8,378 bases of DNA, taken from a virus (taxonomy: Duplodnaviria; Heunggongvirae; Uroviricota; Caudoviricetes). Within the stretch, counting starts at the first letter, position 1; each line of letters begins with the position of its first letter. Location: the IMG/VR virus record IMGVR_UViG_2703718799_000022, one strand, 5' to 3'. The position numbers were made by a program, and so were the translations under genes. Below are positions 1,600-7,666 of the stretch, one piece after another. Under the pieces are notes generated by a model. That model was given only the letters and a program-made list of their open reading frames with translations, searched no databases and was not told the DNA's origin.

Positions 1600-2000
1600 T
1601 TTTTTATTTATCAATTAGTTAGATTGAATGACTCTTGAAATCCATAATTCACAGGTGTTTTTTCCCATCCTGTGGTTTCCTTGGCGTTTTCTAGGTTTTT
1701 TCAGATAGTTGCATTTTTTTAAAAGCATCCTAAGTTCGATCTCAGTGTCTATCTGGGGCCTATTTCTGTCCCATATATGCCCCAAAAAACTCCCCAACAG
1801 ATAAGTAGTTTTTTCATGGATTTACGCGTAAAATCAATAACGGCTGGAAATCATTCAATACTCGCACTATCGAAAAATTTACCAGCCAACCGCAGCACGT
1901 TCTTGCATAAGGTGTGTCTGCGGTTTTTCAACTATTCAGATACATCACTCCCATCACATTCATTCCTCCACATCAAAGGCATATAGGCTATATCACCTTG
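1600..2000. other. Candidate attP region (core not identified)
   Basis: By analogy with lambda (xis then int then attP), the attachment site is expected within a few hundred bp past the integrase stop. The region is AT-rich with no credible ORF. I could not pinpoint a core or arm-type repeats by eye. Confidence 0.3.
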
Positions 2001-2247
2001 ATATTTTTCTTTTTCAGATAAAAACTGTTATCTATGTATACTTTTAAACCCAATCCGTGTAGAGTCTCTGCATAAGATAGTTTGCAGTTGCCGCTTCAGC
2101 TTGCGCCATAAACCGCCTGATTTTTGCTGCCACCTGTTAGCATTCCTGTATACCTGAAACGACAATGTTTATCTACGAACTTTAAGAACACCCAAGATAA
2201 AAATTGTCAACTATATCATATATAACACATTACTAATTCGAGGCTAT

Positions 2248-2361
2248 ATGAACAGCATACTGATAATCACTTCTCTCCTTATCATATTCAGCATTTTTAG
2301 TCATGCCCTAATAAAATTAGGGATTGGCATATCCAATAACCCAGACAAAACCGATGTATAA
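2248..2361 (+). CDS. Candidate 37-aa small hydrophobic peptide ([37 protein letters not shown]), predicted single transmembrane helix with polar C-tail
   Basis: ATG at 2248 preceded by GAGG at 2240-2243 (4-nt spacer). Open frame to TAA at 2359-2361. Not in the supplied ORF track (below its length cutoff). AT-rich, with five rare ATA Ile codons, so chance occurrence is not excluded. Lies 68 bp upstream of and co-directional with the 77-aa ORF. Confidence 0.3.
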
Positions 2362-2429
2362 GTCAACATATCCTGAATCAGACATACAATATCGCAATGA
2401 AAATCAATAATATTTTAAGGAATATCTTC

Positions 2430-2663
2430 ATGAAATCAAAAGACACCCTAAAGTGGTTCCCTGCGCAGCTTCCTGAAGTAAGAATTATCCTAGGGGATGC
2501 TGTAGTGGAAGTAGCAAAACAGGGAAGACCTATCAATACCAGAACATTGCTTGATTACATTGAAGGAAACATAAAGAAAAAATCATGGCTGGATAACAAA
2601 GAATTATTACAAACAGCGATATCAGTTCTTAAAGACAACCAAAATTTAAATGGTAAAATGTAA
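2430..2663 (+). CDS. Hypothetical 77-aa protein of unknown function
   Basis: The track ORF 2397-2663 has no RBS at ATG 2397. The in-frame ATG at 2430 is preceded by AAGGA (2417-2421) with an 8-nt spacer. No family recognised from the sequence (MKSKDTLKWFPAQLPEVRIILGDAVVEVAKQGRPINTRTLLDYIEGNIKKKSWLDNKELLQTAISVLKDNQNLNGKM). Confidence 0.5.
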   Translation: MKSKDTLKWFPAQLPEVRIILGDAVVEVAKQGRPINTRTLLDYIEGNIKKKSWLDNKELLQTAISVLKDNQNLNGKM

Positions 2664-2979
2664 TATAATAAACTTACTTTTTTATCATTTTTCCACTTTA
2701 ACAACATTTTGCTCCACTTTTCCACGACCAAACAACTTGAAATCTGGTTAAAATAACACGCAACACTATTCTTCTTCCTTGAGTCCGCCCGGAACTCGAA
2801 AAACAAACCGAGTTAAAGCCATTTTTCACAAAATCGATTTTGGGTCTCACCAAAATTACGGGGTTGCATACGCATTCGTTTATTTTCGAACGTGTACATA
2901 CAAATATGCACAAAAATAATCAAAATTATTTTCTGAGATGCATTATGATATGAACACCAATTTCGTATAGAGTCTCACT

Positions 2980-3570
2980 ATGTCTCGAATTTTTGCTTAC
3001 TGTCGGATATCAACGCTGGATCAGACCATCGAAAATCAACGCCGGGAAATCGAAAGTGCAGGTTTTAAAATCAAACCTCAGCAAATAATCGAAGAACACA
3101 TTAGCGGCTCAGCAGCAACCAGTGAGCGTCCTGGTTTTAACCGGTTGCTTGCTCGCCTGAAATGTGGTGATCAATTGATTGTGACAAAACTGGATCGCCT
3201 TGGTTGTAATGCAATGGATATCAGGAAAACAGTGGAACAACTGACCGAAACAGGTATCAGAGTGCATTGCTTAGCATTGGGGGGCATTGACCTGACCAGT
3301 CCAACAGGAAAAATGATGATGCACGTAATTTCAGCAGTCGCTGAATTTGAACGAGACCTTTTACTTGAACGCACTCATTCCGGGATAGTAAGAGCCCGCG
3401 GCGCAGGGAAACGTTTTGGTCGACCACCTGTGTTAAATGAAGAACAGAAACAGGTGGTATTCGAACGAATTAAGTCAGGTGTAAGTATAAGTGCCATTGC
3501 CCGGGAATTCAAAACCTCGCGGCAAACCATTTTAAGAGCCAAAGCAAAACTTCAGACACCTGACATATAA
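2980..3570 (+). CDS. pin: Serine DNA invertase of the Pin/Hin/Gin/Cin family
   Basis: 196-aa ORF with the N-terminal resolvase catalytic motif '[11 protein letters not shown]' (active-site Ser) and a C-terminal helix-turn-helix '[17 protein letters not shown]'. Near-identical, as far as I recall, to E. coli prophage Pin proteins (PinR/PinE). Located next to tfa as in Rac and e14. Confidence 0.93.
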
Positions 3571-3667
3571 AAAATAATCTCGGTGTGAGATGCTTTACGT
3601 CTTCCAAGCCCCCTTCCTTGCCGTAAATGGAAAGATACATCTAATTATAGAATTTATATGTTTTACC

Positions 3668-4243
3668 CTACGGCAGTGCTGGCCATTCAATATCCTGTGC
3701 AGTTGACGTATCAACACGGTTCAGCAACACCCGATACTTTTTCCAGGCTTCCAGCAATGAGGTTTCTTCCTCCGTTGCGATTTCCAGATCTACAGCATCC
3801 TGAAGTGGCGCAATATGCTCACTGGCTACCTGCATCAGGCTGTTTTTTGTTTCTTCCGCCTCTCGGATCCGGAACAGTTTTTCTGCTTCTGCATCTTTCA
3901 CCCAGGCTGTGCCGTTCCACTTCTGAAACTCCCCTTCCGGCGATAACCAGGTAACATTTTCCGGTAACGGACCGAGTTCAGAAATAAATAACGCGTCCCC
4001 TGACGCTACGTCATAAACCGTTTTACCCCGATGGTCTTCAACGAGATGCCACGATGCCTTATCACTGTTGAAAACAGCCACAAAGCCAGCAGGAATATCT
4101 GGTGGTGCAATATCGGTACTGTTTGCTGGCAGACCTGTATGAGGCGGAATATATGCGTCACCTTCACCAATAAATTCATTAGTTCCGGCCAGCAGATTAT
4201 AAATTTTTATGGTCCGTGGTTGTTCACTCATTCTGAATGCCAT
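3668..4243 (-). CDS. tfa: Tail fibre assembly protein (chaperone for Stf)
   Basis: 191-aa ORF starting [24 protein letters not shown]..., matching lambda Tfa as I recall it. The start ATG (4243-4241) overlaps the stf stop TAA (4245-4243) in the sequence TAATG. Confidence 0.93.
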
Positions 4244-7002
4244 TATGCAAGCCTCACAATATAGTTAAATGCGATGTTTTTGACGGTGTTTTCCGCGTTA
4301 CCAGCAGCGTTAACGGTGATGGTGTGTCCATGTGAACCAATCGCAACGGAGTGCGTATGAGCACCAATACCGACAGTATGCGCGTGTGCACCTGCAGATG
4401 CTGCTGTGCCGGACAGTGAATGGCTATGATTACCATCTGTACTGGTATTCGCTAACCACCCCGTAGACATACCTACTGAGCCTTGTACACCCCAGGTATT
4501 TTGACCTGAGCTTGTATAACCATATTGATAAGTATCTTTAAAAACACTGGGGTTAAATCGACGGCCATCTCTATGGCTGTGATTACCAGCTGCATTCGTG
4601 CTGCCACTTAAACTATGGGTATGCGCACCAGTGTTATTCGTGGATTTAGTGCCGTAATCAAACGACGATGTGGTTTTCGTCCCCAAATCCGTACTGGATG
4701 CGCTGGCGCTGTGGGTATGCGATTTAATGCCGTCCTGTTCCTGAGACAATACGGCCCGACCACTGGCAGGTTTGCCCTTAATCGTCCAGCCACGCATATC
4801 AGGGATCACGCCTGACGGATAAGCCGCTGCAAGTTTCGGGTATGCAGATTTGTCAAAAGCCTGCCCCTGCATCAGGGCATAGCCAGACGAATAAATATCG
4901 TAAGTATCACCAGATGTATTAACCCAGGCAAAATTTGTAAACCCTGTCAATGTGCGCTGCCATAAAGCACCAGTAATCCCCTTCGGATTACCATTACCTG
5001 CACGTAAAACAAGTTCAGATATACCTGCCTGTTGAGGTGACCCCACGTTAAATCCAGCGCCACCAATCAACGTAATTGAAACAACAGAACTCGCCTGTGG
5101 CATGGTTACCGTTGCTAATTTGAACCAACCAGCACCACCGCTGAATGACATTGTTGTTGAGTTAAGCGTACCAATATCTTTCGGCGTCAGTGTTATATCC
5201 GCTGAAAGCGCCTTACCATTCACCTTACGGGCAGAAGGTACCCGACCATTCGCATTGTCATTAGCTGCTTTCACTGCTTTCGGTGTCGCAGCAAGCGTTT
5301 CAGATGTGCTGTTGGTTGCACTACTGAGCTGGACAATTCCTTTTTGTGCTGTCGTAGCGTCCTGTGCGGTGTATTTCCCGTTAGCCAGGTCATACGCGGC
5401 CTTAACGGCTTTTGGCGTTGCCGCCTGTGACTCGGAAGTGCTGTTAGTCGCACTGCTGAGCTGAACTATCCCTTTCTGTCCTGTCGTTGCATCCTGTGCG
5501 GTGTATTTCCCGTTAGCCAGGTCATACGCGGCCTTAACGGCTTTTGGCGTTGCCGCCTGTGACTCGGAAGTGCTGTTGGTCGCACTGCTGAGCTGTACTC
5601 CCCCCTTTTTCGTCGTGCTCGCATCCTCAAGCGCCACGGCGGATGCAATATCCTCTGCACGTTTTGCCGCTGTCTCAGCGCGCGTTGCTGCGGATTCTGC
5701 CGTACTTTTGCTCTGTGCTGCCGCTGCCGCACTGCCAGCAGCCTCTGTCGCCTTCGTGGATGCCGTCGTGGCGCTGCCCCTCGCTGCTGACGCCTGTCTG
5801 GTCGCCTCATCTTTTGAAGCAGACGCAGATGATGCCGATGACGCCGCCGAACTGGCGGACGATGCGGCAGCCGTTTTTGAGGATTCTGCGCTGGTTTCCG
5901 ACGCTTTCGCGTTCGTTTCGGATGTCTTCGCTGCGGAAGCAGACCTCGCTGCTGCGCTGGCCTGTTCAGTGGCTTCGCCAGCCTTCGTTGTGGCTGTTGA
6001 AGCGGATGATGCGGCGCTTTCTGCCGATTTTCCGGCGGCGGTGGCACTGACTGCTGCCTCCTCTGCCTTAATGGACGCCTCACGGGCCGATGATGCAGCT
6101 GCTGTCTCAGAGTCTGCCGCAGCTGAGGCGCTCTGTTCCGCTGCCGTTTCAGAAGACTTAGCATTCGTCTCGGACGTTTTTGCCGCCTTCACGGAATTTC
6201 CTGCCGCCATTGCCGAGGAGGCTGCACTGCTGGCGCTTGTGGAGGCGTTCGTTTCTGATGATTTTGCCGCCTCTTTGGAGGCCGCCGCATCTCTGGCTGA
6301 AGTGGCGGCTTCTGACGCTTTCGTCGTCGCAGTGGATGCAGAAGTGGCTGCTGATTTTTGTGACGCTGCAGCATTCGTTTCTGACGTTTTCGCGGCACCG
6401 GCACTGGTGGCCGCCGCGCTTTTTGAGGACTCTGCAGCGGCAGCACTTTTTGATGCTTCTGTGGCCTTTGTTGATGCTGTTCCTGCGCTGGAAGACGCTG
6501 ACTGAGCCGACGTCGCGGCCTGCCCGGCTGATGTGCTGGCTGCACGTGCTGAGCCTGCAGCATCAGTCGCATGGGTTGCCGCCTCACGGGCTGATGTGCC
6601 GGCATCGCCGGCTGACTTCTTCGCGGCTGCCGTGTTCTGTGCCACCGCGGACGCGTTACGCGCCACCTCTTCCACCATCAGCTCAAAACGGCGCAGTGCC
6701 TCCGGACGGGCATCATCCTCCGTCATGGCACCGAGAAAATCATTCAGCGTACCGGGTCGGGAATCTTCATACACGGTGATGGTCCCGGCATGTGACGGCG
6801 GGAATCCTTCCACCAACAGAATAACGCTGTACTGACCGTACTCAACGTCCATACTGTAACGCCCGGCTTCATCCGGATTTTCTGAGGCCAGCGTGTTCAC
6901 CACCACCGTGGTGCTGTTACGTTTTGCTTTCAGCTGGATTGTGCAGTTCTGTACCGGTTTTCCTGTGCCGTCTTTCAGTACACCTGAAATCTTTACTGCC
7001 AT
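4243..7002 (-). CDS. stf: Side tail fibre protein (lambda Stf-like), apparently intact
   Basis: Track ORF 4243-7008 begins at a GTG; the ATG two codons in (7002-7000) gives [26 protein letters not shown]..., the lambda Stf N-terminus as I recall it. Long Ala/Ser/Thr-rich shaft, three tandem 44-aa repeats, His-rich HxH motifs near the C-terminus, and the C-terminal '[18 protein letters not shown]' typical of Stf and T4 gp37-type fibres. Confidence 0.93.
5240..5606 (-). repeat. Tandem direct repeat, 132-bp period, about three copies, inside stf
   Basis: 'ctgagctg' recurs at 5324, 5456 and 5588 (spacing exactly 132). Copies 5341-5463 and 5473-5595 are nearly identical at DNA level; the third (lowest-coordinate) copy is more diverged. 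Encodes the 44-aa unit '[44 protein letters not shown]'. Confidence 0.85.
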
Positions 7003-7011
7003 ATTCACCCC

Positions 7012-7040
7012 ACAAAAAAGCCCGCCTGAACCGGCGGGCT
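7012..7040 (-). terminator. Rho-independent terminator downstream of lom, immediately upstream of the stf start
   Basis: Minus-strand sequence agcccgcc-ggttca-ggcgggct forms an 8-bp GC-rich stem with a 6-nt loop, followed by ttttttgtgg. About 10 nt separate the T-tract from the stf ATG. Confidence 0.7.
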
Positions 7041-7066
7041 GTCATAACACTGTGTTACCTGGCTAA

Positions 7067-7666
7067 TCAGAATTTATAACCGACACCCACGATGAAACTG
7101 TTGGTACGCCAGTCACCGCTGCCGGAGCCTTCATAAGCGACGTCAACGGCCACGGATTCGGTCGGGTTAAACTGCACGCCAGCTCCCCACGCCAGAGACG
7201 TGTTGCTGTGGCGACCGTCATCACTTCCGGTCAGCACATCGTGCGTTTTCCCCTTGTTGTCAGTTACGCGGATATAATCTCCGGAGAAAGTCGAAACACG
7301 GCTGTAAGCCATACCCGCCATCGCATACGCGCTGAACCATTCATTCACGCGCACAGACGGCCCCGCCATCACGCTGAACCAGCGGTTACGCACGGAATCT
7401 TCATGCCAGCGGGTATCGCTGTAATGCGTTTTTTGCTCATCTTCAGCGTTGGCATAACTGAATGACGTAATCAGCCCCAGCGTGTCCGTAAACTCATAAC
7501 GGTATTTCACGTTAATCCCGTTCAGATTATCGCTGCCGGGAGCGTTCGTACGGGCATGAAGATACCCTGCGCTCAGTGTGGCCTGCTGCTCAGACGCCCA
7601 TGCAGGCGCACCGGATACGGCCAGACAGATGGCTGCGGACAAAATGGCTGCACAAACTTTACGCAT
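7067..7666 (-). CDS. lom: Outer membrane beta-barrel protein Lom (Ail/Lom/PagC family)
   Basis: 199-aa [29 protein letters not shown]... with a signal peptide and the C-terminal 'FIVGVGYKF' beta-barrel end; matches lambda Lom as I recall it. GAGAGG lies 6 nt upstream of the ATG. Sits between J and stf as in lambda. Confidence 0.95.

Follow-up and report, generated by a model that had tools for sequence, protein, structure and literature searches.

The AT-rich segment between the integrase gene and a pin-type invertase gene in this stretch of Caudoviricetes DNA (hereafter the window, the whole 8,378 nucleotides that were analysed) carries two small open reading frames, and it raises the question of what these frames encode and what their products could do for a phage or for the bacterium that harbours it as a prophage.

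The accessory island and its two-gene cassette

The features of the locus, in window coordinates, are as follows.

1600..2979 (no strand assigned): AT-rich accessory island between integrase and pin, equivalent of the lambda b-region
1600..1640 (no strand assigned): candidate attP/crossover neighbourhood, with the start of Qin homology at 1634
2195..2667 (+ strand): core cassette that moves as a unit, shared with Salmonella prophages
2240..2243 (+ strand): Shine-Dalgarno GAGG of ynaM/ynfT, 4 nt before the ATG
2248..2361 (+ strand): 37-aa ORF, ynfT/ynaM, predicted single-pass membrane peptide
2362..2429 (+ strand): AU-rich spacer, 68 nt, 27.9% GC
2417..2421 (+ strand): Shine-Dalgarno AAGGA of ydfK, 8 nt before the ATG
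2430..2663 (+ strand): 77-aa ORF, ydfK (Rac paralogue ynaE), all-helical, cytoplasmic, with a predicted AriR/YmgB-like fold
2893..2920 (+ strand): promoter-like site of pin, TGTACA-16-AATAAT, adjoining the cassette and outside it
2980..3570 (+ strand): pin-type serine DNA invertase (Pfam Resolvase and HTH_7; RefSeq annotation)

The composition of the island agrees with the sequence-only reading, which had seen an AT-rich segment here: its GC content is 35.3%, compared to 44-45% in the flanking genes (int 44.0%, pin 44.8%) and 47.6% in the whole window. The proposed location in the lambda b-region, where accessory genes gather, was likewise borne out, as the gene order of the window is that of phage mEp460, with int/attP as left-hand and pin-tfa-stf-lom-J as right-hand neighbours of the island. 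Similarity searches revealed 100% identity over the island in many O26/STEC genomes and about 98% identity in the phages mEp460, HannyBb and Tritos. Homology to K-12 Qin, as determined by blastn against loci of NC_000913, begins at window position 1634, which corresponds to the annotated left end of Qin; judging from the sequence, 1600..1640 is probably the attP or crossover neighbourhood. No convincing second crossover site for Pin emerged when inverted repeats were sought.

Of the whole island, only the core cassette recurs in Salmonella prophages (78.7% nucleotide identity), and these prophages carry a different, Mu/P2-like baseplate-type tail module. Among the complete E. coli genomes, 5426 in number, about half (2807) contain the cassette. 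Conservation of the pair across related phages, which the earlier reading had named as a check, is pronounced: among 109 IMG/VR viral contigs found by a degenerate DNA motif for YnaM, 107 have the pair intact with ydfK 68-74 nt downstream. Other cargo nearby in Qin and in the Salmonella prophages includes true cold-shock-domain proteins.

The two ORFs are co-directional, 68 nt apart and each preceded by its own Shine-Dalgarno sequence, with coordinates as first read. The site of ynaM is also present, as GAGG/GAGGA, in the aligned Salmonella copy, and that of ydfK is kept in all copies aligned. The chance background is considerable, the window holding 105 ORFs of 25 aa or longer. Comparison of synonymous and non-synonymous changes, a pattern by which the ORFs could have been exposed as non-coding DNA, gave a coding signal against the Salmonella copies for both ynaM (dN/dS 0.09) and ydfK (0.085). 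On the basis of these values, the matches to profile models and the published detection of the proteins, ynaM and ydfK are genuine protein genes under purifying selection.

The peptide matched Pfam PF23676 over residues 1-37 of 37 in the peptide scan (96.2 bits, cut-off 27) and the NCBIfam YnaM/YnfT model NF041477 (63.9 bits, cut-off 35), and is 100% identical to the 37-aa K-12 peptides YnfT (Qin, b4748) and YnaM (Rac, b4744), which are also encoded directly upstream of ydfK/ynaE and pin, as here. The 77-aa protein, described earlier as lacking a recognisable family, turned out to be K-12 YdfK (Qin, b1544; 100% identity), from which YnaE (Rac, b1375) differs only by K51T; the K-12 proteins have the same length of 77 aa and the same neighbours. 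YdfK matched PHROG 2718 (E=1.8e-47), and the precomputed label PF27475 (YnaE) stands on nearly all homologue clusters, including those with 99-100% identity. The identity of the genes as the ynfT(ynaM)-ydfK(ynaE) cassette is thereby practically certain. The pair is already annotated in K-12 and its products have been detected, and it is not new. The copy described here lies beside intact integrase and excisionase genes in a phage-like setting resembling that of mEp460, whereas the K-12 copies sit at the ends of decayed prophages.

Both products have been observed in K-12. Intact masses of YdfK and YnaE were reported by LESA-MS, with peaks appearing after refrigeration (PMC5594050), and they equal the computed masses of the 77-aa proteins. 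An alternative 88-aa form of YdfK, starting at 2397, is without a Shine-Dalgarno sequence. The published intact mass of YdfK, 8772.78 Da (PMC5594050), agrees with the monoisotopic mass computed for the 77-aa form including its methionine (8772.80) and differs from the value for the 88-aa form (10129.57). SPA-tagged YnaM has been seen on immunoblots (PMC6001520; bioRxiv 10.1101/511675), and the tagged chromosomal peptide reached a comparatively high level in normally growing cells, above that of most small proteins (bioRxiv 10.1101/511675). A rare cluster of ydfK-expressing cells has been described under tetracycline or chloramphenicol (PMC10522482).

A probable distant relationship of YdfK to AriR, YmgB and YcgZ

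The RefSeq name of the 77-aa protein, 'cold shock protein YdfK', reflects induction only. Similarly to members of the CspA family (PF00313), YdfK is small and cold-inducible; in contrast to them, it showed no cold-shock domain in the Pfam scan, is predicted to be helical rather than a beta-barrel, and comes without a detectable 5' UTR thermoregulator of the cspA type.

The only new point of our analysis is the likeness of YdfK to AriR and YcgZ. The AF2 model of YdfK, built from a shallow alignment of 19 sequences (pLDDT 76), is all helical and forms a three/four-helix bundle that carries the helical core fold of 2OXL, on which it superposes at 1.6 Å. The best Foldseek match of this model was AriR (2oxl_A; target TM 0.83, probability 1.00), whereas every other match had a target TM of at most 0.39. 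The sequence identity between YdfK and the AriR/YcgZ family is only about 14-22%, and single-sequence hhalign comparisons of YdfK with YcgZ, AriR and YmgA gave low probabilities, so a comparison of family against family was needed. The alignment of the YdfK family with the YmgB/YcgZ family reached a probability of 75% (P=2.4e-5) over 37 columns covering helices 1-2, with the common motif LGxAVxEvxkxGRxiNxrtL. Its score of 31.0 stands about 10 standard deviations above that of 150 column shuffles (10.5 +/- 1.9, maximum 16.5), and a reversed-alignment control scored 11.8; the profile result is supportive, though short of what commonly counts as proof. The sole NCBIfam match of YdfK was the YcgZ_fam model NF040640 (E=0.012; 15.9 bits, cut-off 80), and Pfam PF10798 gave no match at E<=0.1, while the positive controls YcgZ and AriR matched both models. 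A search of PDB sequences with the YdfK profile yielded nothing significant (best E=0.45). We consider YdfK to be probably a distant relative of AriR/YcgZ.

The proteins of this group (AriR/YmgB, YcgZ/YmgA; PF10798) are of similar size, 78-90 aa as against 77 aa in YdfK. They differ in setting: AriR, YcgZ and YmgA are encoded in the BluR/BluF-controlled host operon ycgZ-ymgABC, which is reportedly induced by many kinds of stress, whereas ydfK is prophage-borne, between attP/int and pin, and follows a gene for a membrane peptide that has no counterpart in the host operon. In AriR, R74 is required for binding of SpoT, and in a by-eye alignment of the last helix this residue falls on L60 of YdfK; the apparent replacement suggests that the partner of YdfK may differ.

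In an alternative view, YdfK would not be a connector that binds proteins but a DNA-binding transcription factor with direct control over a small cold-shock regulon. The name 'DNA-binding transcriptional regulator' stands on some homologue records, and a network inference treated YnaE as a putative regulator of cold-shock genes and pinR with a shared target motif (PMC1764438). That annotation is computational only, co-expression of cold-shock genes and the adjacent pin can account for the inferred regulon, the Pfam scan of YdfK detected neither an HTH nor any other domain for DNA binding, and the only good structural match of its helix-bundle model is AriR. Direct DNA binding by YdfK is accordingly regarded as improbable.

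The peptide YnaM, the leader and the phage context

The single transmembrane helix attributed earlier to the 37-aa peptide holds as a prediction, with a maximal 19-residue Kyte-Doolittle mean of 2.52 at residues 4-22. After this hydrophobic helix YnaM ends in a short polar tail, and ydfK follows 68 nt downstream. Such a layout could be that of a pore-forming or depolarising membrane toxin, to which YdfK or an antisense RNA would be the antidote, in a system of plasmid-like addiction, superinfection exclusion or abortive infection. Type I toxins such as PepG1, Hok and TisB are likewise short peptides with one hydrophobic helix; YnaM is tightly linked to ydfK, the cassette lies in a phage accessory hot spot adjoining tail-fibre genes, and a promoter-like site in antisense orientation occurs at 2439-2412, at chance level. 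The one toxin model that YnaM matched was PepG1, with very weak similarity (E=0.055; 13 bits, cut-off 70). In contrast to type I toxin genes, no significant model match and no antisense RNA family was found for YnaM, none of the Rfam antitoxin or sRNA families matched the island, and the ynaM mRNA is not predicted to form the kind of stable structure that typically blocks translation of type I toxins. Tagged YnaM builds up in healthy growing K-12 (bioRxiv 10.1101/511675), and YdfK homologues are widespread without the peptide. Furthermore, the 12-residue polar tail of YnaM is conserved and subject to purifying selection, a pattern that points to a specific interaction more than to mere damage of the membrane. 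The toxin-like interpretation proposed at first thus found no positive evidence, and we assign it little likelihood.

YnaM-like peptides, with a TM helix and an ISNNxD-type tail, are encoded directly upstream of YdfK homologues of about 55-60% identity in Pantoea eucrina and Superficieibacter. Among the chromosomal YdfK homologues of about 60% identity, from Enterobacter, Klebsiella, Raoultella and other genera, most lack an upstream ORF resembling ynaM, indicating that YdfK does not need YnaM.

The region of ynaM could also act in cis, as a peptide or 5' UTR leader of ydfK that senses cold or ribosome stalling, with the peptide itself being functionless. Temperature-dependent read-through at the ydfK/ynaE leaders is said to have been observed by Raghavan and colleagues (Genome Res, 2011). 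The RNAs 'ttcC-ynaE' and '5' UTR-ydfK' bind Hfq by co-immunoprecipitation (PMC4152368), and a passage of the same article ascribes to Raghavan et al. 2011 the earlier proposal that both are riboswitch-like leaders. Induction of ydfK by cold (PMC5594050) and by ribosome-targeting antibiotics (PMC10522482) would suit such a leader, as would a short AU-rich spacer in which the promoter/terminator scan of the island found no terminator-like site between the two ORFs. Against a cis-acting role stand the properties of the peptide and of the RNA. The sequence of YnaM, including its non-hydrophobic tail, is selected (with the low dN/dS given above) and recognisable in Pantoea and Superficieibacter, and the peptide accumulates as a stable protein (PMC6001520; bioRxiv 10.1101/511675). 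The spacer varies in length from about 22 to 76 nt (68-74 in E. coli and Salmonella, about 25 in L010, 22 in L076). Neither the spacer nor the full leader folds more stably than shuffled sequences do (z +1.23 and -0.57), for which reason a structured thermosensor in the leader was dropped as a candidate. Rfam models, run over the full window with a limit of E<=1, had no match in 1600-2979, and the cspA thermoregulator was among those not found. We regard a pure leader function of the ynaM region as quite improbable. Elsewhere in the window the Rfam scan matched IS009 inside tfa and gave two further matches at chance level.

Signals for transcription in the island are close to the background, with 7 promoter-like sites found against 5.7 expected by chance. 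The spacer contains one of chance-level quality (TCAACA-16-TACAAT, 2363-2390) and a Fur-box-like stretch at 2393-2411; a Fur cluster has been predicted in PMC2189734. The promoters listed for ydfK and ynaE by genomic SELEX (PMC3946193) were set aside, as they are located outside the prophage in K-12 and absent from the window. Among the promoters of that list only the pin motif occurs in the window: the hexamers given for pinQ/pinR (PMC3946193) are those of the promoter-like site at 2893..2920.

The phage context raises one more alternative, namely that the cassette consists of anti-phage defence or anti-defence genes unrelated to stress regulation in the host. The b-region, proximal to the tail-fibre genes, is a common place for such cargo, and the occurrence of the cassette in unrelated phage backbones and its AT-rich, foreign-looking DNA would fit this assumption. 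On the other hand, PADLOC-DB returned 0 families at E<=1 for either protein, the PHROG families matching the pair have no assigned function, and YdfK is induced by cold or by translation inhibitors, whereas infection is not known to be an inducer. The YdfK product is kept in the long-dead prophages Qin (100%) and Rac (K51T) and at apparently non-prophage chromosomal sites of many Enterobacterales, and this retention fits a host-beneficial regulator better than a defence gene. The suggestion of a defence or anti-defence role therefore found no support, and its probability appears low.

A possible stress-regulatory role in lysogens

The readings of the cassette as toxin, as defence system or as RNA thermometer found no support. 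The evidence favours a role of YdfK in stress regulation instead. We propose, with about even confidence, that ynfT-ydfK is a prophage moron that encodes a stress-induced regulator of the connector type together with a membrane peptide partner. The cassette is an accessory pair of the lambdoid phage b-region, found also in the cryptic prophages Qin and Rac, and would be expressed in the lysogen rather than serve phage growth. Both genes would be co-transcribed from a promoter upstream of ynaM.

YdfK itself may act in the cytoplasm as a small connector: by binding a signalling protein of the host, as members of the AriR family do, it may retune stress, biofilm or sigma-S-linked expression in a lysogen under cold or with slowed translation. 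The partners known for AriR are RcsC of the Rcs relay (cytoplasmic part) and SpoT (regulatory domains), and those of YdfK are envisaged by analogy. [quoted passage not shown] This connector mechanism is tentative, and we hold it slightly less probable than its opposite. YnaM, made from the same transcript, could be a membrane-anchored partner or modulator of YdfK; the odds that the two are functionally coupled seem balanced.

The most specific form of the proposal, in which YdfK/YnaE is a phage-spread offshoot of AriR/YcgZ that together with YnaM plugs prophages into Rcs and/or SpoT-(p)ppGpp signalling upon chilling or ribosome stalling, is speculative and on the whole rather unlikely. If true, it would represent a prophage rewiring of the envelope-stress and stringent responses, assign a function to two y-ome genes and be a case in which prophages disseminate a modified signalling connector of their host. 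The resemblance to AriR/YcgZ in fold and profile, together with the concordant overexpression result given below, turns the label 'cold shock protein' of ydfK/ynaE, genes that are carried by many temperate phages, into a specific and cheaply testable hypothesis, namely that YdfK may bind Rcs components, SpoT or the YcgZ/YmgA/AriR complex and that YnaM may take part.

A functional coincidence with YcgZ, and an indirect hint at an action on Rcs or SpoT, comes from a pooled overexpression screen of the ASKA library, in which 29 clones were picked out of about 40,000 and 8 of these lowered ytfK'-lacZ (PMC8600398). Both ydfK and ycgZ were among these 8 in the primary screen (PMC8600398).

The ynaM/ynfT-ydfK/ynaE pair and its genomic setting

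The feature under study is real and already known: it is the ynaM/ynfT-ydfK/ynaE gene pair, carried by E. coli K-12 as ynfT and ydfK in prophage Qin and as ynaM and ynaE in prophage Rac. The two ORFs proposed by the sequence-only reading were found in place, 68 nt apart and each with its own Shine-Dalgarno, within the following layout.

33-284: excisionase
304-1599: tyrosine integrase
between integrase and invertase: stretch of 1.4 kb without large genes
2248-2361: 37-aa ORF (ynaM), Shine-Dalgarno GAGG 4 nt ahead of its ATG
2430-2663: 77-aa ORF (ydfK), Shine-Dalgarno AAGGA 8 nt ahead of its ATG
2980-3570: Pin-type serine invertase
minus strand: tail-fibre assembly gene tfa (3668-4243), long tail fibre, lom and end of J

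The 37-aa product matched Pfam PF23676 over its full length (96 bits) as well as NCBIfam NF041477, and is letter for letter K-12 YnaM and YnfQ (now YnfT) as printed in VanOrsdel et al. 2018 (PMC6001520). It is hydrophobic, as had been claimed, with one strongly hydrophobic segment (19-residue Kyte-Doolittle mean 2.52). A membrane toxin encoded together with its antidote is an unlikely reading of this arrangement, about on a par with the three other alternatives weighed below; for none of the four does positive support go further than architecture or older computational annotation. Every residue of the 77-aa product agrees with K-12 YdfK (Qin), a 100% match, and against YnaE (Rac) there is the one difference K51T. 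In RefSeq the product is called 'cold shock protein YdfK', and clusters of its homologues are labelled with the newer Pfam PF27475 'YnaE', a family without known function; the earlier statement that the protein has no recognisable family was therefore wrong.

The GC content of the island at 1600-2979 is 35.3% versus 44.0% in int, 44.8% in pin and 47.6% in the whole window, in agreement with the AT-richness previously judged by eye. Phage mEp460 has the same gene order as the window, as does one O26 E. coli chromosome that is 100% identical across 1600-2979. This shared order places the island at the lambda b-region position, between the tail-fibre genes and attP/int, where it had been located before. 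Homology to Qin starts at window 1634, the exact annotated left end of that prophage, so the attachment site probably falls just past the integrase stop codon. The ~300 bp 5' of the core of the pair (1886-2194) are ~99% conserved across E. coli phages and in the two K-12 prophages, are missing from the Salmonella version and carry no annotated RefSeq gene; this segment could contain the promoter of the pair or a long 5' UTR.

Distribution, selection and expression

Of 5426 complete E. coli genomes, 2807 carry the 601-bp core (2150-2750), and 2646 of the 2808 matching records are at least 99% identical to it. Conservation of the pair in related phages, which the sequence-only reading had left to be checked, was confirmed: among the 109 IMG/VR loci with the YnaM motif GIGISNNPD, 107 have a ydfK ORF 68-74 nt 3' of ynaM. 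In Salmonella the pair adjoins a tail-fibre assembly gene, in a phage whose baseplate module is Mu/P2-like, and homology to the window is confined to 2195-2667, which thus moves as a cassette. A metagenomic variant (YdfK 72% identical) has the pair with only ~25 nt of intergenic sequence. Distant YdfK homologues (55-64% identity) occur as a single copy in many Enterobacterales, most without an upstream peptide gene; in Pantoea eucrina and Superficieibacter, a 39-43-aa ORF encoding a TM helix followed by '...SNN(N/Q)D...' lies 5' of the ydfK homologue. YnaM is essentially never found without YdfK; YdfK can stand alone.

Distant ydfK copies neighbour other small stress-type cargo genes, as seen in Enterobacter (L002/L003) and Limnobaculum (L004/L005), where the homologues lie amid genes for YnfU, GnsAB toxin, DUF892 and BON domain proteins. 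Cargo serving defence or anti-defence is a doubtful reading of the pair. The Limnobaculum homologues sit between the lysis and the terminase genes of a phage; members of the YdfK family are thus not limited to a single moron slot. A second YnaE-family gene (70 aa), followed by an overlapping 137-aa ORF without a Pfam match, stands just 5' of ynaM-ydfK in a Salmonella prophage (L007 4143-4765) and likewise in L008 and L009, indicating duplication of the family inside one phage. Contigs assigned to MAGs of Caldithrix, Alistipes and Draconibacterium and to one Chryseobacterium assembly (L015, L017, L020, L072) hold ydfK 99-100% identical to E. coli, the first three with an identical ynaM as well, which almost certainly reflects mis-binning or contamination with E. 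coli.

Both genes are real and expressed. Relative to the Salmonella copy (78.7% nucleotide identity), dN/dS was 0.09 for ynaM and 0.085 for ydfK, a synonymous/non-synonymous pattern that identifies both ORFs as coding, a point the sequence-only reading had left to this comparison. SPA-tagged YnaM has been detected by immunoblot at levels above most newly found small proteins (PMC6001520; bioRxiv 10.1101/511675). Top-down LESA-MS assigned 8772.78 Da to YdfK and 8745.75 Da to YnaE, with peaks appearing once colonies were refrigerated (PMC5594050). Monoisotopic masses computed for the 77-aa forms with Met retained (8772.80 and 8745.75) match these values, which fixes the ydfK start codon at 2430. 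An alternative 88-aa form starting at 2397 was rejected, as it is without a ribosome-binding site and mismatches the published intact mass. Tetracycline and chloramphenicol mimic cold shock. Under these two antibiotics, a single-cell study found a rare cell cluster expressing ydfK (PMC10522482).

Published hints on regulation include an Hfq-bound 5' RNA that has been proposed as a riboswitch-like leader (PMC4152368). A purely cis-acting leader is an improbable explanation of ynaM, since strong selection on the peptide argues for more than such a role. No Rfam family matched the island, the spacer and leader RNA folded no better than shuffles, and the length of the ynaM-ydfK spacer is not conserved. 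A terminator scan detected no terminator-like site between the genes, and their co-transcription is inferred. Promoter-like sites in the island occur at chance frequency. A Fur-site cluster has been predicted near the ydfK start (PMC2189734), a Fur-box-like stretch lies at window 2393-2411, and H-NS flags appear in a table of constitutive promoters (PMC3946193).

Probable relationship of YdfK to AriR/YcgZ and a proposed role

YdfK/YnaE is probably distantly related to AriR/YcgZ/YmgA. The AlphaFold2 model of YdfK, built from a 19-sequence alignment, is helical (mean pLDDT 76), and Foldseek singled out AriR/YmgB (2OXL) in the PDB with a target-normalised TM of 0.83 and probability 1.00, all other matches having a target TM of at most 0.39. 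A YdfK-family profile including remote members from a search of 1.84 billion proteins was compared by hhalign with one built from YcgZ and AriR homologues, giving a probability of 75% (P=2.4e-5, 37 columns) and the common motif L-x3-LGxAVxEvxkxGRxiNxrtL. The score of the real pair was 31.0 versus 10.5 +/- 1.9 (maximum 16.5) for 150 column shuffles of the YmgB-family alignment and 11.8 for the reversed alignment. The sole NCBIfam match of YdfK was the YcgZ family (E=0.012, far under cut-off), and YdfK falls under the HMM thresholds of both the YmgB/AriR and YcgZ families, being a member by neither. Our literature search found no published link between YdfK and the YmgB family.

The ycgZ-ymgABC operon encodes AriR/YmgB, YmgA and YcgZ, all of them small and cytoplasmic. 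Of these, YmgB switches on the Rcs phosphorelay with no need for RcsF or the RcsC periplasmic domain (PMC11709261); it also binds the SpoT TGS/helical domains and raises ppGpp (PMC10704370). A caution for the role proposed below is that YdfK, in a by-eye alignment of the last helix, apparently does not conserve AriR residue R74, needed for SpoT binding (PMC10704370). An independent hint comes from a screen for altered ytfK'-lacZ in which about 40,000 clones of a pooled ASKA library were overexpressed. Of the 29 clones picked, 8 lowered expression, and these eight initial screen picks included both ydfK and ycgZ, left unconnected by the authors (PMC8600398).

As the most likely mechanism, we propose that the prophage moron would make YdfK, as a connector-type regulator, under cold or translation stress, that YdfK would act through binding a host signalling protein, and that YnaM may be its co-translated membrane partner. 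The proposal builds on gene identity, expression, selection, linkage and fold resemblance, which are shown; the binding partner and the part played by YnaM are, like co-transcription, inferred. Direct regulation by DNA binding is a poor candidate for YdfK, in which Pfam detected neither a DNA-binding nor a cold-shock domain. Two widespread genes without a known function thereby gain a functional hypothesis that can be tested.

Other observations in the window and its O26 relative

The Pin-type invertase is intact and accompanied by a single tfa gene (2980-4243). An inverted-repeat search found no convincing pair as Pin crossover sites; as in Rac and Qin, the tail-fibre segment that Pin would invert seems to be missing or degenerate. 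A full-length match to Rfam RF02111 'IS009' (226.7 bits, E=2.3e-56) at 3702-3900 (-) lies wholly within the coding strand of tfa, so that RF02111 may just model conserved tfa coding sequence. A weak Trp_leader match (21.7 bits, E=0.9) at 7012-7094 (-), between lom and the tail-fibre gene, is mostly due to a GC-rich hairpin and U-run (AGCCCGCCGGUUCAGGCGGGCUUUUUU), most likely an ordinary intrinsic terminator and not a leader. In E. coli O26 RM10386 (L001, regions 9438-12000 and 14705-15861), IS600 copies break the integrase and separate tfa from the tail-fibre gene. This chromosome is otherwise identical to the window, and int-attP-ydfK-pin-tail is contiguous there; this is the order of a phage, not of a prophage, and suggests that the prophage is tandem or rearranged. 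At 5300-5600 (- strand coding), translation of the tail-fibre ORF revealed near-identical repeated blocks, e.g., a 42-letter block present three times, which come after a long Ala/Ser-rich region.
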